Assembly (NCBI GenBank): GCA_017609915.1
Contig: JAFCDA010000001.1
Span: forward strand, 5,033-69,032
DNA from: Candidatus Pacearchaeota archaeon
Lineage (GTDB): Archaea > Nanobdellota > Nanobdellia > Pacearchaeales > GW2011-AR1
Direction: 5' to 3'
Length of the DNA: 64,000 nucleotides
The position numbers and the translations under genes were made by a program. Each line of letters begins with the position of its first letter. The stretch's first letter is position 1. This document shows positions 4,081 through 28,224 of this stretch, in pieces. The notes beneath the pieces are model-generated. The model was not told the origin of the DNA, did no database searches, and saw only the letters and a list, made by a program, of their open reading frames with translations.

Positions 4081-4133
4081 AATTTTAAATAATTTAGGGC
4101 TTCTTAAAGATTATTAAGGTTGGATAGGGTATC

Positions 4134-5254: not shown

Positions 5255-5344
5255 ACAAAAATACTACAAGCTCATTATATAAAGTTTTTTATACTCCCAA
5301 CCCTTTAAAAAAGGCTTGACCTAAATTTTAAAATCATAGAAAAT

Positions 5345-6037: not shown

Positions 6038-6462
6038 ACAAGATCTAAGTCACCATATACACGTAAAGACCCTGGCCCCTCATTAAGAGGGTCATATTTA
6101 TTTACATGTTCTATTAAACGTCTCTTAATCTCATATAATTTTTTTATAGGAATATTTGCCCCTATTATCTGTTTAGAATCTATTAGCTGTATTGATGGTA
6201 TTGGTTTTTCTTGATAATATCTCACATACATATTTACATCATCCATTAATCCACTAATTTCTCTTTTTAAACTATTTGTTTTAATTGCTTCATCCCAATC
6301 TTTATTATATTCACATACTTGATTAGTTTTATTTTCTCTAGAATTTTCTGAAGATTTTCCAAAAATAGTAGATGAAGTAATACCTAAGGTAGCTCCTACA
6401 AGTCCTGTTCCTTTCATAAAACTTCTTCTTGTTATATTTTGTGGTTTTTTCATATTTATCAA
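6034..6462 (-). CDS. secreted protein with twin-arginine-like signal, function unknown
   Basis: N-terminus TRRSFMKGTGLVGATLG resembles a Tat signal. Its stop codon overlaps the queC stop (convergent). Confidence 0.5.
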   Translation of the reverse strand: MINMKKPQNITRRSFMKGTGLVGATLGITSSTIFGKSSENSRENKTNQVCEYNKDWDEAIKTNSLKREISGLMDDVNMYVRYYQEKPIPSIQLIDSKQIIGANIPIKKLYEIKRRLIEHVNKYDPLNEGPGSLRVYGDLDLV

Positions 6463-6492
6463 TGATATATTGGGTTTTTAAGGTTTATTGTT

Positions 6493-8037: not shown

Positions 8038-8146
8038 TTTATATTGTTTATCTGGAATTTGATAAGCTCAATTTAGTTTTGAAGATGATTTGTTTAACTT
8101 AATCTTATCTTCTCCAAAGCTCTAGGTTTAATAAGATATTGATATT

Positions 8147-9307: not shown

Positions 9308-9413
9308 GATTTTTTTGAGAAGTTGATTGTTTATAAAGTTATATTGGATATACTTAATAAATTGTTTTTTTGTTCTAGTAACATTTATATAGTTTTCCAA
9401 AGGTATTTTACTT

Positions 9414-10829
9414 ATGGCTAATAAAATAAGGAAACTCATCATTATTGGGATAGATGGGGGGACCTTTAATGTTTTAAATCCTTTATTCCAAAAAGGGTTA
9501 TTGCCTAATTTAAACAAATTTAAGAATAAACTAATACTTGAATCAACAATTCCTCCTGGAACTGCTGTTTCTTGGGCAAGTTTCTCAACAGGAAATCTAC
9601 CTGATAAAACAAATATTTATGATTTTACAATTGTTAGTGAAAATTCTTGGAAAATAAATTTTGTTAATAGGAAAATAGCTAAAGGTAAAAAATTATGGAA
9701 CTATCTTGATGAGGCAGGATTAAAAAGCTGTTTTATTAATCTTCCTTTGACTTATCCTGTTGAGGAAATAAATGGGGTTATGATTTCTGGAATTGATACA
9801 CCAAGCAAATTAAGCAATTATACTTATCCTAAAGAGATTAAAGAAGAATTAAATAAAATAGGATACGAAATAGAAGTTTCTGGTTTAAAAGAAAAATCAG
9901 AAGTAAGTGATGAAGCACTTGCAGTTTTGGATAAAAGAATAATAATTGCAAGGAAATTTTTAAAAGAAAACTTTGATTTTTTTATTGTTTTATTTAGAGG
10001 AAGTGATGTTGTTCAACATTATGCTTGGGGAGAAAATCAAGTTGAAGATGCTTACAAAAAAATAGATAAATTTATTGGAGAGGTTCAAGATTATTGTGGA
10101 AAAAATAATGCTGACTTAATGGTTATATCAGATCATGGTGAAGAAAAAGTCAATAAAGCTTTTAATATAAATTCTTGGTTAGAAAAAGAAGGATATCTTA
10201 AAACTCATATAAAGAAAAAGAATGTTCTTTCTTATCTTGGAGTTAATAGGGAAAGAATTTTCAAAATTTTAGAAAAATTACAATTACAATTTTTAGTAAG
10301 AGTTATTCCAAGAAATATTGGTAAAAAAATACCTACAAAACAAATTAATTTTGAAGAAGCAATAATTACTAAACAAATAGATTTTAATCAAACAAAAGCC
10401 ATTGCTAAACGAGCTGTTAAAACAGCACAAATTTTCATAAGTAGTGAAAAAAGAAAAGGAATTGTTAAGAAAGAGGAAATAAAAGAACTTAAACAAGAAA
10501 TTAAGAACAAATTAAAAAGATTTTTTGAAAAAGAAAAATTAGATGTTATAATTAAGACTAAAGAAGAATTATATCCAAATAGTGAAAATTTTGCTCCAGA
10601 TATTAATTTATATTTTAAAGAAAAAGGTTATGATATCACTGCTTCTTTTTCATCAAATAAGGGCTTATGGAATAATCCTCGAGAAAAAGCAACTCATAAT
10701 AGTGAAGGAATTTTATTTACAGATATAAATATAAAATCAAAATCCCAAAAAATTATTGATTTAGCACCTACAATTTTGAAATATTTTAATATAAAAAAGA
10801 AAAATTTTGATGGAGAAAGTTTAATTTAA
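9414..10829 (+). CDS. alkaline-phosphatase superfamily protein (type I phosphodiesterase/nucleotide pyrophosphatase-like)
   Basis: IIIGIDGGTF, PPGTAVSWASFSTG, ISDHGE motifs. Confidence 0.7.
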   Translation: MANKIRKLIIIGIDGGTFNVLNPLFQKGLLPNLNKFKNKLILESTIPPGTAVSWASFSTGNLPDKTNIYDFTIVSENSWKINFVNRKIAKGKKLWNYLDEAGLKSCFINLPLTYPVEEINGVMISGIDTPSKLSNYTYPKEIKEELNKIGYEIEVSGLKEKSEVSDEALAVLDKRIIIARKFLKENFDFFIVLFRGSDVVQHYAWGENQVEDAYKKIDKFIGEVQDYCGKNNADLMVISDHGEEKVNKAFNINSWLEKEGYLKTHIKKKNVLSYLGVNRERIFKILEKLQLQFLVRVIPRNIGKKIPTKQINFEEAIITKQIDFNQTKAIAKRAVKTAQIFISSEKRKGIVKKEEIKELKQEIKNKLKRFFEKEKLDVIIKTKEELYPNSENFAPDINLYFKEKGYDITASFSSNKGLWNNPREKATHNSEGILFTDINIKSKSQKIIDLAPTILKYFNIKKKNFDGESLI

Positions 10830-10830
10830 A

Positions 10831-11592
10831 CTAAGTATATCCTAAATCTCTTAGTCTTTGCATGATTTCTTCTCTTACTATTCCTCTTCCAGCCCTTTCA
10901 TGGGCATTTGGATCATCATTTATCTCAGTACAATGGGTACATCCCAAAGAAGTATATCCTTTAGCATAAAGGGGATTACATTTTATATCAAATTCTTTAA
11001 CATAATTTAAAACATCTTCCTGTGTCCAAAATAATAAAGGATGAATTCTAAAATGTGTATCTCTTGGTGAAACAATTGTTTCTTTTGCTCTTTCTTCATG
11101 TTCTACTCCTCTAATTCCTGCCATAAATGCTGATAATTTCAAATCTTCAATAGCTTTTTTTAAAGGAGCGATTTTATGATATCCACAACAGATTTCAGTA
11201 AAATCTGGGGTTTTCCATCCAAATTTTTCTTTTATACTTTCTAATCTATTTTCAGGAGCTTTAACTTCATGGAAATTAGTTAATCCCCATCCCTTGATAA
11301 TTTCATCAATATACTTGTAAGTTTCTTCAAATTGATGTTGAGTATTAACAAAAATTATTGGTAAATCTTTAGGGATTATTGGTAAAGCTACATGCAATAA
11401 AACAACACTATCTGTTCCACCACTAAACCCTAACCCTGTAGTAGGATATCTTTCAATAGTTTCTCTTATTATTTCTTGAGATTTTCTTATTTTTTTATGC
11501 AAAGGCAATTCTGTAAGTTTTTTAATTTCTTCACTCATTAAATCTATACATCTTTGAGTTCTATTAGCTTTTGTATATTTTTCATCTACCAT
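10831..11592 (-). CDS. PAPS reductase / CysD-fold (PP-loop) protein
   Basis: GLGFSGGTDSVVLLHV PP-loop and SLGCTHCT. C-terminal tail EEIMQRLRDLGYT. Confidence 0.75.
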   Translation of the reverse strand: MVDEKYTKANRTQRCIDLMSEEIKKLTELPLHKKIRKSQEIIRETIERYPTTGLGFSGGTDSVVLLHVALPIIPKDLPIIFVNTQHQFEETYKYIDEIIKGWGLTNFHEVKAPENRLESIKEKFGWKTPDFTEICCGYHKIAPLKKAIEDLKLSAFMAGIRGVEHEERAKETIVSPRDTHFRIHPLLFWTQEDVLNYVKEFDIKCNPLYAKGYTSLGCTHCTEINDDPNAHERAGRGIVREEIMQRLRDLGYT

Positions 11593-11665
11593 TTTTTTAT
11601 TGATTAGATTTAATTAAATATAATGACTATTTAAAGATTATTATGTTTAGATATAGATGAATCAT

Positions 11666-12874
11666 CTATTCTAAAAATTTCATAAGGTAACTATCTCCAG
11701 AATAAATATTAATAGATTCTTCAGGGTCTTTTTCTAAATCATATTCTTCTATTTTCTCATGATGGCTTGCCTTACACAAATTACAAAAATTATTTTTTGC
11801 TAAAATTAATTTTCTGTTTTTGGTTCTTACAGTTTTAATATCTTCACAAAGCCCATCAAATGAAAAAATCTTATCCCTAATTGGCTGATTAGTTTTTATT
11901 AAAGGTAAAAAAGATTTTCCATCAAATTCTTCTTGTGTTTCTAATTGAAGATAATCTAAAATACTTGGGACAATATCAATGTCTTGAACAAATTCTGTTA
12001 TTTTTTTAGATTCAAGTCCTGGAAAATGCATTACAGAGGGAATATGTATTGAATCTTCATATAATCCTGAAGAACTAAAATAAATTCCCTGCTCTGTTAA
12101 ATTTGTTCCATGATCTCCTACAATTATTAATATAGTGTCTTCCCATAAATTTTGTTCTATTAAAACCTCTTTAATCCTTTTTATTTCATTATCTATATCT
12201 TTTATTGAAGTGTCATATTTATTTATCATATCTTGGATAGTGTAAAGTTTTTTTCCTTCAATTCTCTTTTTCAAATATTCTCTCTGACTTTCATCTTTAA
12301 TATTTTCTAATGTTTTTTGAAAATCTGTTTCATTATTTTCTGATTCATATTTTGTATTTGGAAAAGGAAAATGAGTATCCCATATATGCATAAACAAGAA
12401 AAAAGACTTGTCTGTGTTTTGATTTTCTTTTATTTTAGAAATAGCTAAATCTGTCATTTCGTTTATTGGAGCAAATGGTGCTGGAGATTTTTTAAAATCA
12501 AAATTTTCTCCTTCCCCATAATAATTAAATCCTCGTTTAAACCAAAGTCCAATCCAATCTACACAAATTGTCTCATATCCTTTATTTTTCAAATATTCAG
12601 GAAACCAGAATTTTACTTTTTGAACTTTATCAATTTCTTCTTGCTTAGTATATGGGAGTTGATGAATTACTCCATGATTATTTGGATATTTTCCAGTAAA
12701 TATAGAGCTTAATGCAGGAGCAGTAGAATTTGATGCTGAAAAATAATTATCAAACCAGAGATTTTCTTTTGCAATTTCTTTTATGTTTTTATCTGTTTCC
12801 TTATGATAACCATATAAACTTAGATTTTTTCTTCTAAAAGCATCTACAAGGATGATAATTATATTCTTTTTCAT
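11666..12874 (-). CDS. sulfatase-like hydrolase/transferase (alkaline-phosphatase superfamily)
   Basis: IIILVDAFRRKNLSLYGY and VGDHG. The nucleophile region SNSTAPALSS lacks the CxPxR formylglycine motif, so it is probably a Ser/Thr-nucleophile transferase type. Confidence 0.7.
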   Translation of the reverse strand: MKKNIIIILVDAFRRKNLSLYGYHKETDKNIKEIAKENLWFDNYFSASNSTAPALSSIFTGKYPNNHGVIHQLPYTKQEEIDKVQKVKFWFPEYLKNKGYETICVDWIGLWFKRGFNYYGEGENFDFKKSPAPFAPINEMTDLAISKIKENQNTDKSFFLFMHIWDTHFPFPNTKYESENNETDFQKTLENIKDESQREYLKKRIEGKKLYTIQDMINKYDTSIKDIDNEIKRIKEVLIEQNLWEDTILIIVGDHGTNLTEQGIYFSSSGLYEDSIHIPSVMHFPGLESKKITEFVQDIDIVPSILDYLQLETQEEFDGKSFLPLIKTNQPIRDKIFSFDGLCEDIKTVRTKNRKLILAKNNFCNLCKASHHEKIEEYDLEKDPEESINIYSGDSYLMKFLE

Positions 12875-12922
12875 TTTACTTAATTAAATTTAATTACTGT
12901 ATTTAAAGATTTATGAGTAAAA

Positions 12923-13150
12923 CTAGTCTAAATAACCTAGGGCTTTTAATCTCTTTCTTATTGCCTCTTCTTCTTCCTTAGAAAATCCTTCTCCTTTAGT
13001 TTCTGGAGATTCAGATAATAATTGCCTTAAAATAAAGGTCACATATGCTGAAGGAGAATGCATCCCAGTTCCTTTTATCTTTTCTTTTATTTTATCTACT
13101 AATTGGGTTGGTAGAGAGATTGTACTAAATTTTGATTTTTTATTTTTCAT
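12923..13150 (-). CDS. ribbon-helix-helix (CopG/Arc-like) protein with RLKALGYLD tail
   Basis: FSTISLPTQLVDKIKEKI (beta strand plus helix) is typical of RHH. C-terminus is EEEEAIRKRLKALGYLD. Confidence 0.55.
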   Translation of the reverse strand: MKNKKSKFSTISLPTQLVDKIKEKIKGTGMHSPSAYVTFILRQLLSESPETKGEGFSKEEEEAIRKRLKALGYLD

Positions 13151-13197
13151 AATTTACTTAAGAATATAGAGATTTTAAAACTTTCTTAATTAAGCAT

Positions 13198-13211
13198 ATC
13201 TTTAAAAATAT
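13198..13211 (+). promoter_or_regulatory. putative TATA box for small acidic ORF
   Basis: atctttaaaaatat lies ~20-30 nt upstream of the ATG at 13230, consistent with a leaderless or short-leader archaeal mRNA. Confidence 0.35.
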
Positions 13212-13229
13212 GAGGTAGATTTAATTAAT

Positions 13230-13346
13230 ATGACTGAAGAAAACAATAATGAAGATAATAAAGATAAAGAAGAAGATAATGCATATACTCCTGAAGAAGA
13301 ATTAGAAGTAAAAAAAAGACTTGAGAGCTTGGGGTATTTGGATTAA
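13230..13346 (+). CDS. 38-aa highly acidic peptide ending RLESLGYLD (not in ORF track)
   Basis: MTEENNNEDNKDKEEDNAYTPEEELEVKKRLESLGYLD. The tail is conserved at protein level with the two neighbours, but the DNA has diverged. Confidence 0.35.
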   Translation: MTEENNNEDNKDKEEDNAYTPEEELEVKKRLESLGYLD

Positions 13347-13442
13347 ATATAACTTTCTTAGTGTCTCTAATCATAATTAGGACTTAAACTTCTCTTCTTT
13401 AAAGCATTATATTTTATAATATATAGATTAGAATTTTGGTTT

Positions 13443-15155
13443 TCACATTCTCTTTTTTAACAAATTGTCTCTGATTAATAAATAATTTCTTCTCAAAAAA
13501 TCTAATTTTTCATAATGATAAACTTCTATTTTGTATAAAAAACTTGTAATCCAAAACTGCATTCCGCATTTTCTACATGGCAACATAAATTGGTAACGAA
13601 ATTTGTTTTTAATTAAACAATTTTCATACTGAATTTTTTCATGGCAAAAAGGACATTTAACCTTAACCCTGTATCTATCTTTATTTGTTTTTTTAATTTT
13701 GAGGGGAATAACATAACGAGCATATTTTCTTCTTGCATCTACTATATCTTTTTTTAATTTCAGAATTTCATTATCTGTCATTTTATCAGTCATATTTATC
13801 CAATTAGTATGGGCTATTTTGTTTTTAATAAAAGATAATTTATCTTTAATAATTCCTTTTTTAATACAATGGTGATAAATAGCACTTCCAGGATATGGTT
13901 GAATAAATCCTATTCTAATTGAAGAATCTAAAGGAATATAACCAATGCCTTTTGTTATTTTTTTCCAATAATTAAGAGTTTTATAAGCAGTTTCTTTTGT
14001 TTCAGCAACATCTCCAAAAATAAAATTTCCTTGAATACCTATACCTACTTCTCTTGAAAGTTTTATAACATTATCAATTTGTTGAGGGGTTATTGGTTTT
14101 TTCATACTTTTAAGTACTTTTTCACTATAACTTTCAAAACCAAAACCAACAACAGTACATCCTGCATCTTTTAATGTTTTTAATAATTTTTTATCTACTC
14201 CAGCCACTACTAGTTGACAAGTCCATTTAATTTTCCAAGGTGTGTTTTTAATAAGTTTTTTTATTTTTTTACAAAACTCATATACTCTTTCTTTATTAAC
14301 TGAAAATAAATCATCATAAATTTCAATAGCATTGATTTTATATTTTTTTATTGCTATTTCAAGTTCTTTAATAACTGAATCAATTTGCCTTTCCCTATAT
14401 TTTCTTCCAATACTATGATAACAAAAAGTGCATTGAAAAGCACACCCTCTGCTGGCAAGTATTGGGTAAGACCTTGGATAATCAAATTCTCCATAGAGAA
14501 AATAAGAATTACTTTGATTTTTTAATTTTTCTTCATATCCAAATCCTTCAAAATCTGGCAAAGGCAAGGAATCTAAATCCATTATAAGCTCTCTTGGTTT
14601 TGTGAAAAAAGGTTTTTTATTTTTTGGTTTTGTGAAAAAAGGTTTTTTATTTTTTATATAACCTATTCCATTTATTTTGCTTAAGTTTCTTTTTTTTTCT
14701 AAACATTTTAATAACTCGATTATTGTTGTTTCTCCTTCACCAACTACTACAAAATCTGGGTGTAATGATTTAAGCATTAATTCTGGTTCGCTTGTTATTA
14801 ATGCTCCTCCCACAATAGTTTTTGGTTTAGAAGGATGATTTTTAGCTGCTTTTAATATTTTCTCTATTACCACATAACCTATTCCAGTATGTCCTGAACA
14901 AACAATATCATATTTCTTTTTATTTAATTGTCGAAAAACTAATTCTTCTGTTTTTCCATTTAAATGATTTAAATTTAGGCAATCTACATCATATTTTGCT
15001 TTTTTTAAAACAGCAGAAATATAACCCAATCCTAAAGGAAAATTATACTGATAATTTGTTTTATTGCTCAAATTATATCTTGGAATTACAAGCAATATTT
15101 TCATATTTTCTTTTGTATTTTTTTTAGTGTGTTTTATTAATTTTTGTTTTATCAT
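13443..15155 (-). CDS. B12-binding-domain radical SAM protein (2 of 3) with C-terminal zinc-ribbon extension
   Basis: N-terminal B12-like domain (VVGEGE), CAFQCTFC cluster motif, C-terminal CPFC...CRKC. 570 aa. Confidence 0.8.
   Translation of the reverse strand: MIKQKLIKHTKKNTKENMKILLVIPRYNLSNKTNYQYNFPLGLGYISAVLKKAKYDVDCLNLNHLNGKTEELVFRQLNKKKYDIVCSGHTGIGYVVIEKILKAAKNHPSKPKTIVGGALITSEPELMLKSLHPDFVVVGEGETTIIELLKCLEKKRNLSKINGIGYIKNKKPFFTKPKNKKPFFTKPRELIMDLDSLPLPDFEGFGYEEKLKNQSNSYFLYGEFDYPRSYPILASRGCAFQCTFCYHSIGRKYRERQIDSVIKELEIAIKKYKINAIEIYDDLFSVNKERVYEFCKKIKKLIKNTPWKIKWTCQLVVAGVDKKLLKTLKDAGCTVVGFGFESYSEKVLKSMKKPITPQQIDNVIKLSREVGIGIQGNFIFGDVAETKETAYKTLNYWKKITKGIGYIPLDSSIRIGFIQPYPGSAIYHHCIKKGIIKDKLSFIKNKIAHTNWINMTDKMTDNEILKLKKDIVDARRKYARYVIPLKIKKTNKDRYRVKVKCPFCHEKIQYENCLIKNKFRYQFMLPCRKCGMQFWITSFLYKIEVYHYEKLDFLRRNYLLIRDNLLKKRM
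14596..14655. repeat. perfect 30-bp tandem duplication inside CDS
   Basis: ggttttgtgaaaaaaggttttttatttttt x2. Encodes KNKKPFFTKP twice in the linker between the B12 and radical SAM domains. Confidence 0.9.
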
Positions 15156-15241: not shown

Positions 15242-15728
15242 TCACTTTATAACTCTTAATTCAACATGAACTTGAGATACTAAACCACCAAAAAACAAAG
15301 CTAATTTTTCTCTAAGTGGTTTGAATATAAATTTTCCAATTCTTGTGGGTATTAATTCTAATTTGATTATCTCAAACTTTTTTTATTTTTTTATTTTATT
15401 TGGTCCTTCTACAAATACTTTAAATGTCGCATCTGAAAAATAATGTAAATGTTCCATATCATTAAAAGCTCCTTTACTATTATAATAGGGCACTTCAATA
15501 ATAATTACTGCATTTTGCTTACATATTCGATATAACTCATTTAATACTTTTTTGGTTTTAAATAAGATAATATTTGATTCATTAAAACATAATCATAACA
15601 ATCTGCATTTAAGGGATAAGGAAATTTATTAAAATCAAAGCTCTTGAAGATTTTTGGATTTTTTGTATATCTACATTATCCCATCCTTCTCTTATATCTG
15701 GCCCACATCCAAAATTAAGTTTTCTCAT
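15242..15728 (-). pseudogene. class I SAM-dependent methyltransferase pseudogene (frame broken 3 times)
   Basis: Minus strand reads MRKLNFGCGPDIREGWDNVDI / FDFNKFPYPLNADCYDYVLMNQILSYLK / VLNELYRICKQNAVIIIEVPYY... / FEIIKLELIPTR...VIK* in shifting frames. All breaks fall in poly-A runs. No ORF of 60 aa or more in the track here. Confidence 0.6.
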
Positions 15729-15813: not shown

Positions 15814-16686
15814 ATGTTAAAAAGAATAAAAAAAAGAATAAAAAAAAGAATAAGAAAGATAATGAAAGGGTCTTTTTTACATCTAATATTTGAGTATAAA
15901 TGGTATCTTATCAATAGGGCGGCATTAAGAAGATTATTAAAAAAGAATTATAAAAAAAATTTCAAACAACTTCAACCTTCTTCAAAAGTTGCTATTCTTT
16001 TTTTAGGAACCAGGACATATGTTAATCTTTTTCCAAATTATTATAAAAATATAAAAAAATATTTTTTACCAAATATAAAAAAATATTTTTTTGTTTATAC
16101 AGACCAAGTAGATTATCCTTTTTTGTCAAAAAAAGATGTTATTGTTGTTCCTATTAAACATAGAAAATATCCTTTGCCTATGCTTTATACATTTAAATCA
16201 ATAAATAAAGCAGCTGATAAATTAAAAAAATATGACCATATAATCTGGTTTGATGCAGATATGATTGTCAATAGGGTGGTTAAAGAAGAAGAGTTTTTTT
16301 GCCATGATAAACAATTATTTGGGGTCAGACATCCAAATTTTTTAGCTAGAAAAGGAACTTTTGATAATAATCCTAAATCATTAGCTTATGTTCGACCTGA
16401 AGATAATTCTTCTATTTATTATCAAGCTTGTCTTTGGGGAGGTCAATCTAAACCTTTTCTTAAACTATTAAAAGAATTAGAAAAAAGAGTAGATATTGAC
16501 TTATCAAAGAATATTCGTTCAAGAATTTTAGATGAATCTTATTTAAATAAATATTTTATAGAAAAAAAAGATATCACACATGCATATGACCCAACCTATG
16601 CTTATCCTAAAAATCAACCTATTCCCCAACCTTTTAAAAAAAAGATTTTGCATGTTGATTTTAAAAAACATAAAATAATTAAGTGA
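15814..16686 (+). CDS. glycosyltransferase family 6 (ABO / alpha-1,3-Gal(NAc) transferase-like)
   Basis: HIIWFDADMIV (DxD), SSIYYQACLWGG and ILDESYLNKYF align by eye with vertebrate GT6 FCMDVDQVF, GDFYYHAAIFGG and WHDESHLNKYF. Confidence 0.75.
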   Translation: MLKRIKKRIKKRIRKIMKGSFLHLIFEYKWYLINRAALRRLLKKNYKKNFKQLQPSSKVAILFLGTRTYVNLFPNYYKNIKKYFLPNIKKYFFVYTDQVDYPFLSKKDVIVVPIKHRKYPLPMLYTFKSINKAADKLKKYDHIIWFDADMIVNRVVKEEEFFCHDKQLFGVRHPNFLARKGTFDNNPKSLAYVRPEDNSSIYYQACLWGGQSKPFLKLLKELEKRVDIDLSKNIRSRILDESYLNKYFIEKKDITHAYDPTYAYPKNQPIPQPFKKKILHVDFKKHKIIK

Positions 16687-16749: not shown

Positions 16750-17823
16750 ATGGAAGAGTATGAAAAAGAGTTTGAAAATAAAAAGATTCTTATTACTGGG
16801 GGTTTGGGTTTTATAGGAAGTAATTTAGCTCATAAATTAATTCAACTAAATCCTCAAAGAATAGTTGTTGTAGATTCTCTTATTCCAGAATGTGGAGGAA
16901 ATGAGCATAATTTAGATAAAATTAAAGAGGAAATTGATATTTTTAATGTAGATATAAGACAGACTAAAACAATGGATGCTATTATAAGATCATTAAAACC
17001 TGATTTTATATTTAATTTAGCAGGATTATTAAGTCATACAGAAAGTTTAAAAGATCCAAAAAAAGATGCAGAAATAAATGCATGGGCACAATACAATATA
17101 TTAGAACCTTGTAAAATAAATAAGAATAAAGTTAAAATAATTTATGCAGGAACCAGAGGACAATATGGAAAAGATATAAAAATAATGCCTATTACTGAGA
17201 ATTTATCTACTTTAAAACCTGCAGACCCTAATGGAATAAGTAAAAATTCAGGAGAACAAAGTTGTTTATTTTATGGTGAAAAATTTGAAAATATAAGTGT
17301 CTGTTCTTTGAGAATGACTAATACTTATGGTCCAAAACATCAAATGATTTCACCTAAACAAGGATTTTTAAATTGGTTTATAAGGTTAGCTATGGATAAT
17401 AAAGAAATTTCAGTTTATGAACCTGGAAGTCAATTAAGAGATTTTAATTATGTTGATGATGTTGTTAGAGCTTTATTAATGGCTATGGCTTCTAATAAAA
17501 CAAATAATGAGGTTTACAATCTAGGAAGTTGTTTAAATGATGGATATGAACTAAAAGAGTTATGTGGGAATATAATCTCAGTAAAAGATGTTGCAAAAAA
17601 GATAACTGAAATTTGTCATGAAGAACTTGGAGAGTCTGGCAAATTAATAATGATGCCTTATCCTGAAGAAATGAAAAAAATAGAAGTGGGAAATATTAAA
17701 ATGGACTTTACAAAATTTAATAGGGACACTGGTTGGAAGCCTTTAATTAATTTAGATGAAGGATTAAGAAAAACCATAAGATTTTACAATCAAAATAAAG
17801 AAAAATACTGGGGATTAAAATGA
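16750..17823 (+). CDS. extended-SDR NDP-sugar epimerase/dehydratase family protein (atypical active site)
   Basis: ILITGGLGFIGSNL (GxxGxxG) and RMTNTYGP. The expected PYxxSK reads PNGISK, i.e. Tyr to Asn. Confidence 0.7.
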   Translation: MEEYEKEFENKKILITGGLGFIGSNLAHKLIQLNPQRIVVVDSLIPECGGNEHNLDKIKEEIDIFNVDIRQTKTMDAIIRSLKPDFIFNLAGLLSHTESLKDPKKDAEINAWAQYNILEPCKINKNKVKIIYAGTRGQYGKDIKIMPITENLSTLKPADPNGISKNSGEQSCLFYGEKFENISVCSLRMTNTYGPKHQMISPKQGFLNWFIRLAMDNKEISVYEPGSQLRDFNYVDDVVRALLMAMASNKTNNEVYNLGSCLNDGYELKELCGNIISVKDVAKKITEICHEELGESGKLIMMPYPEEMKKIEVGNIKMDFTKFNRDTGWKPLINLDEGLRKTIRFYNQNKEKYWGLK

Positions 17824-18911
17824 TTCCTTTTGGAAATTTAAAAAAACATTATAGTTTAATAAAATCTAATATTGATAAAGCTATATCTGATGTTTTGCAA
17901 GGAGGGTGGTTTATTTTAGGAGAAACATTAAAATCATTTGAAAAAGAATTTGCAGAGTATTGTGGCAAGAAATATGGGGTTGGTGTTGGAAATGGGACAG
18001 ATGCTTTATTATTAGCATTAAAAGCGTACGGAATCAAGCAAGGTGATGAGGTGATAAGTGTTCCAAATACAGCTATTCCAACAATTTCGGCTATTGTTAG
18101 TTCTGGGGCAAAGCCTGTTTTTGTAGATGTTGGTGAAGATTATTTAATAGATGTTAATAAAATAGAGGCAGCTATAACTGAAAAAACAAAAGCAATTATG
18201 CCTGTGCATTTATATGGTCAAGTTTGTGATATGGAACCTATATTAAAAATAGCTGAAAAATATAATCTTCATGTTATAGAAGATTGTGCACAATCTCATG
18301 GAGCAGAATATAAAGAAAAAAAATCTCCTATTGGAGAAACTGGATGTTTTAGTTTTTATCCAAGTAAAAACTTAGGTGCTTTTGGAGATGCAGGAATGAT
18401 TGTGACAGATAATGAAGACTTAGCAAAAAAATTAAGAATGTTAAGAGATTATGGAAAATCAGAAAGAAATAGTGCTAAACTTCATGGATATAATAGCAGA
18501 TTAGATGATATTCAAGCAGCAATATTAAGTGTTAAATTAAAATATCTTGATATGTGGAATAATGAAAGAAGAAAAATTGCTTTTATATATGATATTTTAT
18601 TAAAAAATAATTTTAAAATCCCTATAGAAAACAAAAATAACAAACATGTTTATCATTTGTATGTTATAAAAACAGATAAAAGAGATGAATTACAAAATTT
18701 TTTGAAAAATAAAGGAATTGGAAGTGTGATCCATTACCCAATACCAATCCATTTACAACCTGCTTATGAATATTTAGGATATAAAGAAGGAGATTTTCCA
18801 AAAGCTGAGCAATATGCAAGTGAAATTCTTTCATTACCTATTTTTCCTGAATTAGAAAATGAAGAAATTCAGGAAGTTGTTAAGGTAATTAAAGAGTTTT
18901 TTGAAAATTAG
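17820..18911 (+). CDS. DegT/DnrJ/EryC1/StrS family PLP-dependent sugar aminotransferase
   Basis: GNGTDALLLAL, HLYGQ, EDCAQSHGA, SFYPSKNLGAFGDAG (PLP lysine). 4-nt overlap with the upstream SDR gene. Confidence 0.85.
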   Translation: MIPFGNLKKHYSLIKSNIDKAISDVLQGGWFILGETLKSFEKEFAEYCGKKYGVGVGNGTDALLLALKAYGIKQGDEVISVPNTAIPTISAIVSSGAKPVFVDVGEDYLIDVNKIEAAITEKTKAIMPVHLYGQVCDMEPILKIAEKYNLHVIEDCAQSHGAEYKEKKSPIGETGCFSFYPSKNLGAFGDAGMIVTDNEDLAKKLRMLRDYGKSERNSAKLHGYNSRLDDIQAAILSVKLKYLDMWNNERRKIAFIYDILLKNNFKIPIENKNNKHVYHLYVIKTDKRDELQNFLKNKGIGSVIHYPIPIHLQPAYEYLGYKEGDFPKAEQYASEILSLPIFPELENEEIQEVVKVIKEFFEN

Positions 18912-19023: not shown

Positions 19024-19932
19024 ATGAATGGAGAAAATTTTTTTAAAAAAAGCTTAATAAAGTCTTATAAAATAGTTAGGGATAGATTTAGTAAATATGG
19101 TTTTGGGAATTTTTATTTTGTTAGAAAAATTAATGCAACTTTTTTAAAATATGTGACGCCTAATTTAATAATAATTAAAGGACATAAAATGTTTTTAGAC
19201 CCCTCAGATTCTTTAAGGCTATCAATATATGGTAATCATGAGACAAATGAAAAAGAGATTTATAAAAAATATATTAAAAAAGGAGATGTTGTTTTAGATG
19301 TTGGAGCCAATATAGGGTATGATACTTTGATTCTTGCAAAACTTGTTGGTAAAAATGGCAGGGTTTTTGCTTTTGAACCAGGCCCGATTAATTTTCAATT
19401 ACTTGAAAAGAATATTAAAATTAATGAATATAATAATGTAACTTTAGTAAATAAAGCAGTTTCAAAAGATAATAAATCGATTAAATTATATTTAAATGAA
19501 ACTAATGGGACAGGACATAAAATAGATGATATAAGTAATTTAGGTGTTAAACTTAACAGAAAATCAATCGATATAGAGTCAATTAAATTAGATGATTTTT
19601 TAAAGAATAAAAAAATTAAAAAAATTGATTTTGTTAAAATAGATGTTGAAGGTTCAGAAAGTGAAGTAATTAAGGGAATGAATAATATTTTTAAAAACAA
19701 TAAATCTTTAAAAATGATATTAGAATTTACTCCTGGTGCACTTAAAAACTATGGAAAAGACCCTAAAAAATATTTAAAAGAATTTATTTCTAAAGGATTT
19801 AAATTATATGAGATACCAGATAAAGGTTCTTTTGATAAAGATAAAATACCAATAAATAATGATAAAGATATTCATGATTTATTAAAAAGATGGGGCAAAA
19901 GTGGAACAAATCTGTTTTGTATAAGGGATTGA
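19024..19932 (+). CDS. FkbM family methyltransferase
   Basis: VLDVGANIGYDTL, VFAFEP, DFVKIDVEGSE motifs. Confidence 0.7.
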   Translation: MNGENFFKKSLIKSYKIVRDRFSKYGFGNFYFVRKINATFLKYVTPNLIIIKGHKMFLDPSDSLRLSIYGNHETNEKEIYKKYIKKGDVVLDVGANIGYDTLILAKLVGKNGRVFAFEPGPINFQLLEKNIKINEYNNVTLVNKAVSKDNKSIKLYLNETNGTGHKIDDISNLGVKLNRKSIDIESIKLDDFLKNKKIKKIDFVKIDVEGSESEVIKGMNNIFKNNKSLKMILEFTPGALKNYGKDPKKYLKEFISKGFKLYEIPDKGSFDKDKIPINNDKDIHDLLKRWGKSGTNLFCIRD

Positions 19933-20001
19933 GATGTATAAACGAAAAACATATATTGCTCCTAAGATAAATTTTTAAACCATTATATTTACTAACTAAT
20001 C

Positions 20002-20973
20002 ATGAAAAAAAAGGAAATTCCTGTTTCATTGGTTATGCTTACTTTTGAGATAGATAAAACTGAACCAGCAATTAGAAATGCTCTTGAACAAGATTATCCT
20101 AATAAAGAAATAATTGTTGTAAATGACAATCCAAAATTAAAAATTCCTGATTCTATACTTAAATTAGAAAAACAACGTAAAATTAAAATTGTAAATAATG
20201 TAAAAAATCTTGGTATGGCAGGAAGTTTAAATGCAGGAATCAAGGCTTCAAAAACTAATACAATATTATTTACTTGTCATGATTATTTTTTTGAAAGTAA
20301 TCAATGGATTAGACATATTGTAGAAAAACTTTATTCTGATAAAAAACTAGGAACTATTGGTTCTGTTGTTAGATTGCCTATAGAAGAATGGAAAAATTAT
20401 AGTTTCTTAAACAAACTTTTTACATTTAGGCATATGCTTAAACCATCACGTAATTTACATAGTTGTTATAAAAGAGAGGTATTTAATAAATTAGGATTAT
20501 TTGATTCAAAAAATTTTAAGCGTGGTGGAGAAGATGGAGATTTTTATTCTAAGGTTATAAAAGCCGGGTATAAAACAGGGTGTATTGAAGATAGCCTAAT
20601 CCATAAACATTATAATAAAGATGATAGTTTATTAAAAATACTTAGAAAAGAATATGAGTATGGAAGATCTCATGGAGCACGTAAAAGAAAAGATGGTCTT
20701 TTTTCAAGACTGGGTTTATTTGATTTTGAAATTCGTATTTTACTTATACTAGGATTTATAATGGGTTTATTTATTCATCCTATAATAAGTTTTCTTTATT
20801 TTTTGCCTTTCTTTTTTGTAGCTTTATTTAAGTGCATTAAAGCATATCCTCAAACAAAATGGATTCCTGGATTAATTCTTTCTCCTTTTGCAGGAGTACT
20901 TATTTTATTAATCCAAACTATTGGGGCAACAAAAGAATATTTAGTCCTTCCTAAAACTAAAAGCAAAAAATAA
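20002..20973 (+). CDS. glycosyltransferase family 2 with C-terminal TM helices
   Basis: VSLVMLTFE..., IIVVNDNP, GEDGDFY. Hydrophobic C-terminus. Confidence 0.65.
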   Translation: MKKKEIPVSLVMLTFEIDKTEPAIRNALEQDYPNKEIIVVNDNPKLKIPDSILKLEKQRKIKIVNNVKNLGMAGSLNAGIKASKTNTILFTCHDYFFESNQWIRHIVEKLYSDKKLGTIGSVVRLPIEEWKNYSFLNKLFTFRHMLKPSRNLHSCYKREVFNKLGLFDSKNFKRGGEDGDFYSKVIKAGYKTGCIEDSLIHKHYNKDDSLLKILRKEYEYGRSHGARKRKDGLFSRLGLFDFEIRILLILGFIMGLFIHPIISFLYFLPFFFVALFKCIKAYPQTKWIPGLILSPFAGVLILLIQTIGATKEYLVLPKTKSKK

Positions 20974-21051
20974 AAGTGTTAAAATTATCTAGATCCTAGA
21001 TATAGATTTCACAACAATAAATCTTTTAAAGGGTTTAAACAAACTTAATCT

Positions 21052-22473
21052 ATGAAAAAAGTGATATTAATGTATCCTAATTGTAGGTGGAAAAAAGGGT
21101 TTGAAAATAAAACCATATGGAACCTTCATCCTTATAATCTTTGTTTACTTTCTGCAATGATAGAACAAGATTATGAAACTAAAATAGTAGATACTAATAT
21201 TGATGATATATCTAAAGAAGATTTTGTAAAGATTATAGAAGAATATAAACCAGATATAGTTGGAATTTCAGTTCTTACAAATGAATATTTAGATTCTGGT
21301 TTAATTGCTGCAGAAATAGTTAAATCAATAAATTCTGAAATAAAAACAGTTATAGGAGGGGTTGCAACTTTTGATCCTGAATCTATAATTAAAAATGAAA
21401 ACATTGATTATGTTGTAGTGGGTGAAGGAGAATTTACTTTTAAAAAATTATGTAATCATATTTTTAGTGATGGAGATTTGCCATCTAAAGGCCTTGTTTT
21501 TAAAAAAGATGGAGAAATAATAAATCTTGGTCGTTCAGATTTTATAGAAGATTTAGATAGTCTTCCTTTTCCATCATATGATAAAGTTGATTATTTAAAA
21601 TATGCTAATTCAATTCAAAGAGAAAGTGTAGATAGCCCAAGAGAAATGCCTTATGCAAACATAATAACATCAAGAGGCTGTCCTTATAATTGTTGTTTTT
21701 GCCAGGCTGGAAAAATTTCTGGTAAAAAACCAAGGTTTCGTAGTGTAGAAAATATTCTTAAGGAAATTAGTTGGTTAAAAGAAAAATATGGAATAAAAGC
21801 TCTTATTTTTGATGATGATAATCTTCTTGTTGATAAAGAAAGAGCTAAAAATTTATTTAGGGGAATGATTGATAGAGGATTTAATCTAAAATGGAATGCT
21901 ATTGCTATGGCTGCATTTAAATTAGACGAAGAAATGATAGATTTAATGAAAAAAAGTGGATGTCAATATGTAGATATTGCTATTGAATCAGGTGTTGAAA
22001 GAGTACTTCATGATATTATTCATAAACCTTTAAATTTAGAACATGCAAGAGAAGTTCGAGATTTATTAAAAAAATATGAGATTGATTTTGCTGCAAATTT
22101 TATTATGGGATTTCCAGGAGAAACCTGGGATGAAATTAGAAAAACAATTAAATTTGCAGAAGAATTTGATGCAGATTATACTAAAATATTTATTGCAACA
22201 CCTTTACCAAACACAGAATTATATGAAGTTGCCAGAGAAAAAGGTTATTTAAAAGAAAATTTTAGTTTTGATAAACACTTATGGACTGATGGATGGATAG
22301 AAACTGAAGAATTTCGTCCAGAAGATCTAAAAATCTTAAGGGCATATGAATGGGATAGGATAAATTTCTCAAGCCCAGAAAAAATAAAAAAAATTATCTC
22401 TATGATGGACATTAGTGTAGAAAGACTTAATGAGATAAGAAAAAATACACGCAAGAGGGCAAACCCTCAATAA
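21052..22473 (+). CDS. B12-binding-domain radical SAM protein (3 of 3)
   Basis: N-terminal B12-like domain (VVGEGE) and CPYNCCFC cluster motif. 473 aa. Confidence 0.8.
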   Translation: MKKVILMYPNCRWKKGFENKTIWNLHPYNLCLLSAMIEQDYETKIVDTNIDDISKEDFVKIIEEYKPDIVGISVLTNEYLDSGLIAAEIVKSINSEIKTVIGGVATFDPESIIKNENIDYVVVGEGEFTFKKLCNHIFSDGDLPSKGLVFKKDGEIINLGRSDFIEDLDSLPFPSYDKVDYLKYANSIQRESVDSPREMPYANIITSRGCPYNCCFCQAGKISGKKPRFRSVENILKEISWLKEKYGIKALIFDDDNLLVDKERAKNLFRGMIDRGFNLKWNAIAMAAFKLDEEMIDLMKKSGCQYVDIAIESGVERVLHDIIHKPLNLEHAREVRDLLKKYEIDFAANFIMGFPGETWDEIRKTIKFAEEFDADYTKIFIATPLPNTELYEVAREKGYLKENFSFDKHLWTDGWIETEEFRPEDLKILRAYEWDRINFSSPEKIKKIISMMDISVERLNEIRKNTRKRANPQ

Positions 22474-22483
22474 ACTTTATAAA

Positions 22484-23134
22484 ATGAGTCCAAATTTAAA
22501 AAATCTTTCAGATGAAGAAAAAGAAATTAAGATGATTGAGTTTGTAAAAGAGATTGTTGAATTATGGGAAGCTGCAAAAATACCTTATCCTATTCATTTT
22601 AGTGGGGGAAATGAAAAAGAATTAATTAAAATCTTTTCTGAAATTAAAGAAGGAGATTATGTTTTTTCTACGCATAGGGGGCATTATCATTATTTATTAA
22701 AAGGTGGAGATTTTGAAAAGTTAAAAGAATTTATTTTAAGAGGAGATAGTATGCATATTTTTGATAAAGATTTAAAATTTCTTACATCTGCTATTGTTGC
22801 TGGAACTCCCTCTATTGCTGCAGGAGTTGCTTATGCTTTAAAAAAGAAAAATAGTGAAAATAAAGTATGGTGTTTTATTGGAGATGGGGCAGAAGATGAA
22901 GGGCATTTTTATGAAGCAGTTAGGTATGTTGATGGATGGGATTTGCCATGCACATTTATTATAGAAGATAATGATCGGTCTGTTGAAACTCCAAAAAGTG
23001 AAAGATATGGAAAATCTCAAATTCAGTGGCCATCATGTGTTAGAAGATATATGTACAAGCCAAAATATCCTCATGTAGCAACTGAAAATTGGGTTGATTT
23101 TTCAGGAATGAAAGCTGGAGGTCCTTCTTTTTAA
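22484..23134 (+). CDS. TPP-dependent dehydrogenase E1 alpha-like protein (short form)
   Basis: TPP motif IGDGAEDEGHFYEAVRYVDGWDLPCTFIIEDND (GDG...N). 216 aa versus ~320 aa for typical E1 alpha. Confidence 0.6.
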   Translation: MSPNLKNLSDEEKEIKMIEFVKEIVELWEAAKIPYPIHFSGGNEKELIKIFSEIKEGDYVFSTHRGHYHYLLKGGDFEKLKEFILRGDSMHIFDKDLKFLTSAIVAGTPSIAAGVAYALKKKNSENKVWCFIGDGAEDEGHFYEAVRYVDGWDLPCTFIIEDNDRSVETPKSERYGKSQIQWPSCVRRYMYKPKYPHVATENWVDFSGMKAGGPSF

Positions 23135-24774: not shown

Positions 24775-24938
24775 ATAAAAAATAATCTTAAAATATTAAA
24801 AGGTAACTAAATAATATCCATATCTTGATAAGAATAACGAGTGAGAAAAAGATTTGTAAAGCTTTAAAATGAGTAGAGATTCAAGATGGTTTGCATAACT
24901 TAAAGATATAATAAGATTCCAGTAAATAATATAAAAAA

Positions 24939-25997: not shown

Positions 25998-26067
25998 TTG
26001 AGTTAACAAATCATAACTACGGAAAATTTTTAAATGAGGTATCAATTAAATAAAAATAATAAAAAAG

Positions 26068-27015: not shown

Positions 27016-27066
27016 AATATATTCAATAAGAATCATCTTTAAAAACAAATCTTTTTTGCAATAAGA

Positions 27067-28032: not shown

Positions 28033-28224
28033 TTATTAGTTTAAATTCTTTCTTCAACATTATTCTCTAAAATATATATCTTTCCTACAATAGTTTTTTT
28101 AAAGGAGTTTTTATAATCTTTAATATCCTTAATTTAAAACTATCACATATAAAACTTAAAGTTCCACACCTCAATTGTGTATAACTTGATTATGTAAAGA
28201 TATTGAATTAATAAAATAAAAAAG

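Follow-up and report, generated by a model that had tools for sequence, protein, structure and literature searches.

In the window, by which the whole stretch of 64,000 nucleotides is meant, a predicted glycosyltransferase gene of family 6 (GT6) stands first in a co-directional array of 13 genes, within a surface-glycan island of about 30 kb. This family, which includes the human ABO and alpha-Gal enzymes, occurs in vertebrates, some bacteria and cyanophages, and its odd spread has been used to argue for gene transfer from prokaryotes to vertebrates. The features of the locus are as follows.

493 to 15155, listed on the minus strand, strands mixed: upstream half of the island, with GT-C/PMT_2, GT9, GT2, QueC, B12-radical SAM, GT4, phosphodiesterase, PAPS-reductase-like, sulfatase, RHH and B12-radical SAM genes (Pfam)
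15814 to 16686, plus strand: GT6 glycosyltransferase gene, ATG start, 290 amino acids plus stop, with PF03414 and BoGT6a/ABO matches
15814 to 15981, plus strand: N-terminal extension, amino acids 1-56; basic (2-18), hydrophobic/aromatic (20-33) and basic (35-51)
15819 to 15857, plus strand: 12-nt tandem repeat (AAAAAGAATAAA, 3.2 copies) coding for KRIK repeats (repeat scan)
15985 to 16677, plus strand: GT-A catalytic domain, amino acids 58-288 (Pfam envelope 59-288; about 233 columns aligned with BoGT6a by Foldseek)
16180 to 16191, plus strand: M123...T126, at the donor-sugar contact sites BoGT6a T70 and R73 (ABO S185 and R188), on which phmmer and MAFFT agree
16252 to 16260, plus strand: D147-A148-D149, the DxD metal-binding motif, aligned to ABO DVD 211-213 and BoGT6a NAN 95-97
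16423 to 16431, plus strand: Q204-A205-C206, equivalent by alignment to ABO codons 266-268 (choice of Gal or GalNAc donor)
16525 to 16536, plus strand: I238-L239-D240-E241, with Ile for W300 and Leu for H301; D240 and the catalytic Glu, E241, unchanged
16750 to 17823, plus strand: extended SDR of the NDP-sugar epimerase/dehydratase family (PF01370, 1.9e-48), directly 3' of GT6
17820 to 18911, plus strand: DegT/PseC-like PLP sugar aminotransferase (PF01041, 1.7e-120; PseC-like, 268 bits, below cutoff)
19024 to 29136, plus strand: rest of the co-directional glycan array, with FkbM methyltransferase, GT2, B12-radical SAM, ThDP E1, transketolase/radical-SAM-SPASM, radical-SAM-SPASM, GT9, PHP and radical SAM genes
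29224 to 30840, minus strand: Wzx-type polysaccharide flippase (Polysacc_synt/MatE; Pfam)
46416 to 50607, plus strand: archaeal marker cluster S13-S4-S11-RpoD-tRNA-Leu-L18e-L13-S9, matched best by archaeal equivalog models

The first-pass annotation had assigned the frame at 15814-16686 to GT6, and the Pfam search that it recommended confirms this. PF03414 is matched at 57.6 bits against a gathering cutoff of 25 (E 1.1e-15), from amino acid 59 to 288, which corresponds to positions 77-310 of the 313 in the profile. Among PDB sequences, phmmer matches the protein to BoGT6a (4ayj) at E 7.4e-16 and to the human ABO transferases at about 5e-13. The three GT6 blocks that had been quoted are all present in the frame, namely (D)HIIWFDADMI(V) at about amino acids 141-152, SSIYYQACLWGG at 199-210 and ILDESYLNKYF at 238-248; the alignment to bovine alpha3GT, the earlier reference, covers amino acids 181-289 only (E about 1e-6), that is, the second and third blocks. 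A precomputed PF03414 assignment is found on 73 of 73 database homologues. The AlphaFold (AF2) model of the protein (pLDDT 91.6, pTM 0.87) was compared with the PDB by Foldseek; it matches BoGT6a with a TMt of 0.87-0.89 and an rmsd of 2.1 A to 4ayj, and every one of the best 50 matches is either BoGT6a or human GTA/GTB. A match to Stealth_CR2 was dismissed as sub-threshold (18.8 bits against a cutoff of 39.4). The frame of the gene is intact, and compared with an 86%-identical homologue (L038), its dN/dS is 0.16 at a dS of 0.50; the gene is under purifying selection.

The claim of an intact DxD motif and catalytic Glu also holds, as D147-A-D149 and E241 align to the corresponding sites of ABO and BoGT6a. 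In the alignment, D240-E241-S242 lies over the catalytic DES of both enzymes, E241 being the catalytic Glu. To our knowledge, this Glu, which follows an Asp, is kept in all known GT6 (ABO E303, alpha3GT E317, BoGT6a E192). Among the homologues collected here, it is kept in 36/36 of the long type, 8/8 of the short DxD and 30/30 of the NxN proteins, and the DxD is unchanged in all 36 long-type homologues. Conserved in the window's protein are H173 (ABO H233), T182 (T245), Y202 (Y264), D240 and E241, while across the subfamily little or no change is seen in the DxD, the Asp-Glu pair, the GG motif, H173 or Y202. A C-terminal Lys that touches the UDP diphosphate (alpha3GT K359, BoGT6a K231) is, as far as we know, likewise kept in all GT6; at the expected place there is a K275-K276-K277 cluster followed by an invariant H280, with K275 at least 90% conserved and the pairwise alignments ending at amino acid 277. 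The roles of BoGT6a W189, H190, D191 and E192 are known from the literature (PMC3516806).

The GT6 of Parachlamydia is the sole characterised bacterial DxD GT6, and it requires Mg2+ or Mn2+ (PMC3516806, PMC3961637). By analogy with this enzyme, and because the DxD is intact, it is reasonable to expect that the window's GT6 would depend on Mg2+ or Mn2+, as had been suggested earlier. The DxD is, however, not the special feature it was taken for, since the prokaryotic DxD clade was defined in 2012 and the motif is present in 145 of the 225 nearest catalytic domains collected for this count.

Four substrate-contact residues are replaced. The set that hydrogen-bonds the donor sugar (BoGT6a T70, R73, H190 and D191, or ABO S185, R188, H301 and D302; the donor-sugar contacts of T70 and R73 are described in PMC3516806) reads M123, T126, L239 and D240, the Asp alone being kept. 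The Trp that stacks on the acceptor (ABO W300, BoGT6a W189) is described as touching the acceptor in every GT6 of characterised structure (PMC3516806); its equivalent is Ile238 in the window and Trp in 22 of the 36 long-type homologues. In the 13-member sub-clade of the window's protein, W300 is replaced by I, L or H, and H301 by L, Q, F or E. The canonical WHDES is retained by many relatives of the same subfamily. As the equivalents of W300, H301, R188 and S185/T70 are all replaced, the enzyme probably departs, in its acceptor and in its exact donor, from the characterised transfer of Gal or GalNAc to beta-Gal. The four substitutions could stand for a quite different reaction or for a reduced activity. 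In the human enzyme backbone, the tripeptides QGC, QGA and MAA lead to Gal (B) specificity (Table 2, PMC5377540); QAC is absent from the tested set, and by analogy it argues for a donor without the 2-acetamido group, hence of Gal type and not GalNAc. For the subfamily as a whole, we infer donor, acceptor and metal use by homology.

On account of these replacements, no ABO- or alpha-Gal-type epitope is predicted, and the blood-group-like epitope of the first-pass annotation is not upheld. It may still be argued that the protein is a true histo-blood-group-type synthase, which would transfer alpha-1,3-Gal/GalNAc onto Fuc-alpha-1,2-Gal (H-type) or beta-Gal so that an A/B- or alpha-Gal-like epitope is displayed. 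GT6 is the sole family known for such epitopes, H173, T182, Y202, D240 and E241 are kept, QAC is near the Gal-specific QGC, and WHDES is canonical in many subfamily relatives. Nevertheless, with Ile in the place of the acceptor-stacking Trp (PMC3516806) and with Leu, Thr and Met at the H301, R188 and T70/S185 contacts, such a synthase is very improbable. Moreover, a Pfam search of about 56 window ORFs, which are most but not all of those of at least 100 amino acids, found no GT11 or GT10 fucosyltransferase; in contrast, an NxN GT6 in locus L019 adjoins both a GT11 and a GT10.

Two neighbours of the gene are altered. The SDR downstream, whose best NCBIfam match is dTDP-glucose 4,6-dehydratase (below cutoff), has Asn for its catalytic Tyr, and the methyltransferase next to GT6 is a pseudogene, frameshifted and with an internal stop. 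For these two reasons, part of the local glycan pathway may be decaying. Together with the four replaced contacts, such neighbours would suit a GT6 that is itself a decaying or catalytically dead relic, i.e., a pseudo-enzyme or lectin-like protein in an eroding glycan cluster. Against this speak the intact frame, the dN/dS of 0.16 and the (nearly) invariant DxD, Asp-Glu, GG motif, H173 and Y202 of the subfamily. Further, the W/H replacements are common to the 13-member sub-clade, which points to another specificity that is stably kept and not to random decay. A dead relic is, therefore, very improbable.

The archaeal context that had been claimed is borne out by marker proteins which score best against archaeal equivalog models. 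S13, S4, S11, RpoD, L18e, L13 and S9 lie at 46.4-50.6 kb in archaeal gene order with DUF655 adjoining, about 30 kb from GT6 on the same contig. The GC of the GT6 gene (0.242) and its GC3 (0.131) are the same as those of the neighbouring and ribosomal genes. A scan for sigma-70 promoters and terminators gave fewer sites than shuffled sequences, this bacterial-type model being uninformative for an archaeon.

About 35 public homologues are 45-86% identical to the protein, all with the DxD, and homologues occur in at least ten DPANN species genomes (six Pacearchaeota, three Woesearchaeota and one Nanoarchaeota), as counted by a genome scan that used two peptide patterns only. The DPANN homologues often lie within the same glycan island. 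The islands of L017 and L018 resemble that of the window, and L038 has the same local order as the window, rSAM-MTase-GT6-next gene. The SDR follows GT6 directly in four of the seven non-His-variant loci with a downstream flank (the window and, as an orthologue, L006, L013 and L017), and in none of the four WHDES loci. The SDR and DegT neighbours were also considered as proof of an amino-deoxy-sugar donor; with few loci and a window SDR that lacks the catalytic Tyr, this was judged too weak.

The closest labelled relatives (45-86%) are all DPANN archaea. Bacterial homologues are found at 41-45% in Omnitrophota, Acidimicrobiia, Saprospiraceae and one gammaproteobacterial MAG, in loci with a GC of their own (0.43-0.71). 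The cyanophage GT6 are 31-41% identical (tblastn, phage records). That a virus carried the archaeal subfamily was considered and found unsupported, viral contigs and phage records reaching at most 41% identity. In a neighbour-joining tree of 104 taxa, the DxD sequences are split from the NxN and vertebrate ones at 95% bootstrap, the window's GT6 being on the DxD side. The ‘archaeal-type’ clade receives 13-34% bootstrap and the deep nodes are weak; therefore, neither monophyly nor a direction of transfer is claimed.

The first-pass annotation gave vertebrates, bacteria and phages as the known hosts of GT6, and the literature stated in 2014 that the family has ‘not been found in ... archaea’ (PMC3961637); a literature search for archaeal GT6 found no report. 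The archaeal host range is a new point for GT6. The epithet ‘phylogenetically unusual’ is overstated, as the gene is no singleton and has about 35 homologues. GT6 turning out to be common in related archaea had been named as something that would lower the novelty, and the DPANN genomes show this to be partly the case. Horizontal transfer is the accepted explanation of the GT6 spread (PMC3516806), and an ancient inter-domain transfer is likely. As for ‘probably horizontally acquired’, nothing points to a recent event: the GC and GC3 are native and the local synteny is common to relatives.

One further rival holds the gene to be foreign, either gained recently from bacteria or viruses or part of bacterial or viral DNA that an assembly or binning error has put among archaeal sequence. 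It could appeal to the patchy distribution of GT6, to the horizontal transfer accepted for it (PMC3516806), to the homologues in bacteria and cyanophages and to a tyrosine recombinase at 58.3-59.2 kb, but is highly improbable, as GT6 and the archaeal markers lie on one public contig of 70,449 bp, the GC and GC3 are indistinguishable from those of the ribosomal-protein genes there, the nearest labelled relatives are all DPANN archaea and have the flanking genes in common, viral contigs stay at or below 41% identity, and the bacterial homologues sit in loci of their own GC. The preferred reading, to which we give a probability of roughly 80%, is that the gene encodes a predicted functional, retaining GT6 of GT-A fold from the DxD branch of prokaryotes. 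The gene is, on this reading, native to its host, a tiny-celled DPANN archaeon of low GC, whose label as Pacearchaeota/Woesearchaeota-like is taken from the nearest homologues.

The conserved N-terminal basic-hydrophobic-basic extension of two helices is also a new point for GT6. Its helices are predicted at 2-19 and 22-46 (AF2), its charged residues are 20 K/R against 1 D/E, and amino acids 1-18, strongly cationic and amphipathic, have a hydrophobic moment of 0.8. The N-terminus had been described as a KRIKK-type repeat and not a TM anchor. The (K)RIK repeat is indeed present, and no TM helix was found there in Kyte-Doolittle windows of 19 residues (maximum mean 0.71), nor was a signal peptide found in the GT6 protein. 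The repeat is not kept in the 86%-identical P0002, where it reads MLKWIKNRIRKYMKK. Among 31 homologues, Y31, L42 and Q54 are invariant and Q52 is at least 90% conserved. The extension is missing from phage-type and NxN GT6. From its sequence, it is proposed to be a peripheral membrane-association module; in the predicted model, helix 22-46 (pLDDT >90) may do no more than pack against the catalytic domain.

It is proposed that the extension would hold the soluble catalytic domain on the cytoplasmic side of the membrane. There, D147 and D149 would chelate Mg2+ or Mn2+, and through this divalent cation a UDP-hexose would be bound. E241 would stand central in the active site, and the sugar would be transferred with retention (alpha linkage) to an acceptor that may be a lipid-linked oligosaccharide intermediate. 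The Wzx-like protein would then flip the finished glycan, and a GT-C enzyme would attach it to a surface protein or lipid.

Among the known systems, the prokaryotic DxD ‘minimal’ GT6 (cyanophage P-SSM2 GT6 and Parachlamydia acanthamoebae PaGT6) form clade 1 of Thiyagarajan et al. 2012 (PMC3516806). The window's protein resembles them in its catalytic domain of about 230 amino acids, its prokaryotic type and its intact DxD. It differs in the conserved 55-residue N-terminal two-helix extension, the archaeal host and the replaced equivalents of W300, H301, R188 and S185. PaGT6 makes the A-antigen from UDP-GalNAc and H-trisaccharide (PMC3516806), whereas this product is not predicted here.

The best match among solved structures, at 26% identity, is BoGT6a (PDB 4ayj, 4ayl, 4cj8) of the metal-independent NxN clade (NCBIfam NF041524). 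The two have in common the catalytic Glu and Asp, the equivalents of His122, Tyr153 and Thr10, and, as proposed, the role of a cytoplasmic surface-glycan enzyme with a non-TM membrane-association module. The basic-hydrophobic-basic module is, however, C-terminal in BoGT6a (BHB) and N-terminal here. Further, NxN stands against DxD, the donor tripeptide is AGG against QAC, and Trp189 and His190 are not kept. Against NF041524 (cutoff 250), BoGT6a scores 316.6 bits, and the window's protein, at 159.7, falls below. With the vertebrate GT6 (human GTA/GTB and bovine alpha-1,3-galactosyltransferase), it shares PF03414, the GT-A fold, the DxD, the D-E-S-x-L-N-K-Y block and the YY...GG donor loop, at about 20% identity and a TM of about 0.67 for the predicted model. 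Unlike these Golgi-lumenal enzymes, it is predicted to be cytoplasmic, has no type-II TM anchor or stem, has the acceptor Trp and the donor His/Arg replaced, and has no fucosyltransferase partner found in its window.

A bolder view, which we consider tentative and rather unlikely, goes beyond the preferred reading. It would make the protein and its 13-member sub-clade the first GT6 whose specificity is other than UDP-Gal/GalNAc onto beta-Gal, the N-terminal hairpin a third independent membrane attachment in the family (besides the TM-plus-stem of vertebrates and the C-terminal BHB of bacteria), and DPANN a third domain-level reservoir in the story of GT6 horizontal transfer. Within it, the sugar transferred might be a 6-deoxy or amino-deoxy hexose supplied by the SDR and DegT genes, which are apt to lie beside these variants, and a DPANN-specific surface glycan would be the product.

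On the preferred reading, the protein adds an unremarkable example to a metal-binding branch already known among prokaryotic GT6, and the understanding of how GT6 enzymes work is unchanged by it. It gives experimentalists a compact GT6 to assay, probably dependent on metal and altered at its substrate contacts. For DPANN biology, it offers one concrete, assayable enzyme for surface-glycan clusters that are otherwise largely uncharacterised. A conserved and selected DxD subfamily in surface-glycan islands of the Pacearchaeota/Woesearchaeota type thus extends the GT6 family to the third domain.

The open reading frame at 15814-16686 (+) has an ATG start and codes for 290 aa. Its first-pass annotation as a glycosyltransferase of family 6 (GT6) is borne out by Pfam, by sequence matches in the PDB and by the predicted fold. 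PF03414 (Glyco_transf_6) scores 57.6 bits (E 1.1e-15; gathering cutoff 25) over residues 59-288, that is, profile positions 77-310 of 313, and the three diagnostic blocks are indeed present at about residues 141-152, 199-210 and 238-248. When all PDB chains were searched with phmmer, nothing but GT6 enzymes was matched: BoGT6a of Bacteroides ovatus scored best (7.4e-16), with about 55 entries of human GTA/GTB near 1e-12 and bovine alpha3GT, aligned to residues 181-289, near 1e-6. In pairwise alignments, DAD147-149 lies opposite NAN95-97 of BoGT6a and DVD211-213 of ABO, and ILDES238-242 is aligned with the canonical WHDES, including the catalytic Glu. An AlphaFold2 model built with 31 homologues has a mean pLDDT of 91.6 and a pTM of 0.87. 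Compared with the PDB by Foldseek, it gave BoGT6a or human GTA/GTB as each of the 50 best matches, the top one with a target-normalised TM of 0.89 and an rmsd of 2.1 Å over about 233 columns.

Residues 1-56 are predicted in this model to form two helices (2-19 and 22-46); 20 of the residues are Lys/Arg and 1 is Asp/Glu. A basic stretch (2-18) is followed by a hydrophobic/aromatic one (20-33, SFLHLIFEYKWYLI) and a second basic one (35-51), and a hydrophobicity scan of the extension found no window of transmembrane grade. It is similar to the C-terminal basic-hydrophobic-basic (BHB) membrane-association domain of the bacterial NxN enzymes (PMC3516806), though placed at the opposite end of the protein. 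The extension may serve for peripheral membrane association. The N-terminal KRIKK repeat noticed earlier is real as a triple KRIK repeat; it is a local 12-nt tandem duplication, absent from the 86%-identical homologue.

A search of 5.8 billion proteins gave 73 matches, each with PF03414, of which about 35 (45-86% identity, 280-317 aa) carry the same N-terminal extension of roughly 55 aa. In an alignment of 31 sequences, D147, D149, E241, Y202, G209 and G210 never vary, nor do Y31, L42 and Q54 of the extension. Conservation is at least 90% at H173, at D240 and, in the extension, at Q52.

The gene lies in a single, large glycan-biosynthesis island, which takes up the first roughly 31 kb of the window, and opens a co-directional block of 13 genes (+):

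Island start, in order: GT-C/PMT_2 protein, GT9, GT2, QueC, B12-radical SAM, GT4
After GT4: phosphodiesterase, PAPS-reductase-like protein, sulfatase, small RHH protein, B12-radical SAM
15245-15728 (-): frameshifted methyltransferase, between the B12-radical SAM gene and GT6
From GT6 (+): extended SDR, DegT/PseC-like aminotransferase, FkbM methyltransferase, GT2, B12-radical SAM
Continued (+): split ThDP E1/transketolase fused to radical-SAM-SPASM, radical-SAM-SPASM, GT9, PHP, radical SAM
Island end (-): Wzx-type flippase

The methyltransferase pseudogene (class-I SAM) matches, in three reading frames, an intact 162-aa Methyltransf_11-like protein (2846-3334, -) at L038, the locus of the 86%-identical homologue, with an in-frame stop in place of a Gln; the gene may truly have decayed, or the assembly may contain homopolymer errors. 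Immediately 3' of GT6, the extended SDR (16750-17823, +) reads PNGISK at residues 160-165, where its orthologues 3' of GT6 at three other loci (L006, L013, L017) have IYAINK or IYTVHK, so that the catalytic Tyr of YxxxK is Asn in this genome. By reading of its sequence, it appears to lack the D-E dyad typical of 4,6-dehydratases. The split E1/transketolase pair (22484-24774, +), with a radical-SAM/SPASM domain fused to its second half (546 aa), is again found next to GT6 at L018, and may point to branched-chain or C-modified sugar chemistry. There are three B12-binding radical-SAM paralogues (6493-8037, -; 13443-15155, -; 21052-22473, +) and three more radical-SAM or SPASM proteins in the island, a density that is unusually high for a small-genome archaeon.

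Substrate contacts were mapped through two independent alignments. Those kept are T66 (BoGT6a T10, UDP), D147/D149, H173 (ABO H233), T182 (ABO T245), Y202 (ABO Y264), D240 and E241. Four are replaced:

BoGT6a T70/ABO S185: M123
BoGT6a R73/ABO R188: T126
BoGT6a W189/ABO W300: I238
BoGT6a H190/ABO H301: L239

In BoGT6a, the donor Gal/GalNAc is hydrogen-bonded by T70, R73, H190 and D191, and W189 stacks on the acceptor in all solved GT6 structures (PMC3516806). At the donor-selecting tripeptide (ABO positions 266-268), the protein has QAC. Yamamoto et al. 2014 (PMC5377540) tabulate a mutational code in which QGC, QGA and MAA confer activity with Gal (B) but none with GalNAc; QAC is not in the table.

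It had been proposed that the enzyme could create a blood-group-like epitope. The four contacts are replaced, and the roughly 56 ORFs scanned in the window (most of those of at least 100 aa) include no GT11/GT10 fucosyltransferase. For these reasons, no epitope of A/B/H or alpha-Gal type is predicted, and a genuine blood-group-type synthase is unlikely; relatives that retain WHDES could be nearer to the canonical reaction. Slightly less probable still is an inactive relic. The W/H replacements are common to a 13-member sub-clade (bootstrap 57, neighbour-joining tree) and thus suggest an alternative specificity that is stably kept, not decay. Moreover, dN/dS (Nei-Gojobori) is 0.16 against L038 (dS 0.50) and 0.27 against the homologous locus L001, which indicates a working gene under purifying selection.

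The archaeal context is confirmed by an archaeal-type ribosomal/RpoD cluster in the same window:

46.4-50.6 kb: DUF655, then S13, S4, S11, RNA polymerase subunit D, tRNA-Leu, L18e, L13, S9

Each ribosomal protein scores far higher with the archaeal NCBIfam equivalog than with the bacterial one (S4: uS4_arch 136.5 bits vs rpsD_bact 46.9; S9: uS9_arch 147.3 vs 80.8), and for L18e and RpoD there is no bacterial counterpart. One public contig of 70,449 bp carries the exact GT6 protein together with the ribosomal proteins of the cluster. GC is 24-32% all along the window. The comparison with neighbouring genes puts GT6 (GC 0.242, GC3 0.131) within their range, GC3 being 0.08-0.15 in the ribosomal genes and glycan neighbours. 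The nearby GT4 is 66-73% identical to genes of Pacearchaeota and Woesearchaeota MAGs. Judged by its nearest homologues, the contig most probably belongs to a Pacearchaeota/Woesearchaeota-like lineage, which is part of Nanoarchaeota in GTDB. At L038, the genes around GT6 follow one another as they do here (B12-rSAM, methyltransferase, GT6, next gene); L017 shares the sulfatase, PAPS-reductase-like gene, RHH, GT6 and downstream SDR, and L018 the E1, transketolase-rSAM, GT9 and rSAM-SPASM. In viral contigs and phage genomes, no match exceeds 41% identity. Not connected to the island are a CotH-kinase-like protein of 918 aa (35226-37982, +) and, near the far end of the window, a tyrosine recombinase (58332-59216, -; Phage_integrase, 1.9e-46). 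Recent horizontal acquisition was overstated, given the ribosomal-like GC3, the synteny with relatives and the purifying selection; recent transfer or mis-assembly is the least probable alternative, fitting composition and synteny more poorly than a native gene.

The evidence from sequence and gene order points to a native gene of an archaeal contig, and no rival accounts equally well for composition, synteny, selection and residues. Its catalytic domain, DxD and catalytic Asp-Glu included, is intact and under selection, and the surface-glycan island around it also encodes a flippase. The enzyme would act at the cytoplasmic face of the membrane, tethered by its cationic amphipathic N-terminus, and would bind a UDP-hexose via a divalent metal on D147/D149. 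The sugar, likelier a non-acetamido hexose than GalNAc, would be moved with retention to a lipid-linked oligosaccharide, to be flipped afterwards by Wzx.

The rarity of such a protein had also been overstated. One genome per GTDB species was scanned, with two peptide patterns only and hence for lower bounds, and at least 16 loci were found: archaeal ones in Pacearchaeota (6), Woesearchaeota (3) and Nanoarchaeota (1), and bacterial ones in MAGs of Omnitrophota, Acidimicrobiia (2), Spongiihabitans, Saprospiraceae and Ozemobacteraceae. DPANN archaea thus hold at least 10 loci; the closest in the scan is from a Pacearchaeota MAG (71% identity). Bacterial loci have a GC of 0.43-0.71 and archaeal ones 0.25-0.36, each with its own composition, and the occurrences are therefore real in both domains. 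The two Acidimicrobiia loci (L008, L009; GC 0.69-0.71) encode high-GC actinobacterial homologues of 42% identity with the extension motif Y..W/R...DR.AL..LL....Q.QFP, as in DPANN proteins; the extension is thus older than the catalytic domain or was transferred together with it.

Among 1.84 billion representatives of 50% clusters, searched exhaustively, 1805 GT6 relatives reached E<=1e-3 and 58 reached E<=1e-30; many of the relatives are multidomain proteins. A neighbour-joining tree built from 104 catalytic domains groups the protein with its homologues P0002 (86% identical) and P0003 (bootstrap 100), within a set of about 43 sequences whose labellable members are all DPANN archaea; bacterial and phage sequences with a label are placed elsewhere. 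Its deep nodes (bootstrap 13-34%) are too weak to settle monophyly or direction of transfer. DxD sequences are split from NxN plus human ABO with 95% support. Many DxD domains nearest to the archaeal subfamily lie C-terminally or N-terminally in multidomain proteins of 480-1240 aa (P0083-P0106), and examples are found in Spongiihabitans (L011, 921 aa), Saprospiraceae (L015, 940 aa) and Woesearchaeota (L012, 603 aa); the GT6 literature examined makes no mention of such fusions. An NxN-type homologue (P0069; WLDES, and QAC as here) lies in a cassette (L019 1-16717 and L020; GCA_013566075.1/GCA_013558355.1) ordered GT2, SDR, GT11, SDR, methyltransferase, GT10-like, GT6, DegT, RmlD-like. About 20 small ORFs without Pfam matches and ClpP follow, and the 160-kb contig looks like a large phage or virus with a complete fucosyl-plus-GT6 glycan module.

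Three GT6 clades were described by Thiyagarajan et al. 2012 (PMC3516806): prokaryotic minimal DxD enzymes (cyanophage P-SSM2, marine metagenome homologues and Parachlamydia PaGT6, which has no activity without Mg2+ or Mn2+), multidomain vertebrate enzymes, and the BHB-bearing bacterial NxN enzymes. Given the first clade and the DxD found in 145 of the 225 nearest catalytic domains, this motif is not new in prokaryotic GT6. In the public record, one member of the cluster is called 'MAG: hypothetical protein [Nanoarchaeota archaeon]', consistent with the query's score below the cutoff of NF041524, the NCBI GT6 model of BoGT6a type (159.7 bits vs 250; BoGT6a, 316.6). According to PMC3961637, GT6 had not been found in archaea. 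No report of an archaeal GT6 after Pham et al. was found in the searchable literature; the archaeal host range is unreported there, the sequences being already in public databases, unnamed. The protein is an archaeal member of the prokaryotic DxD clade, and two of its features are worth an experiment: its N-terminal module, which is conserved, and its substrate pocket, which is altered.
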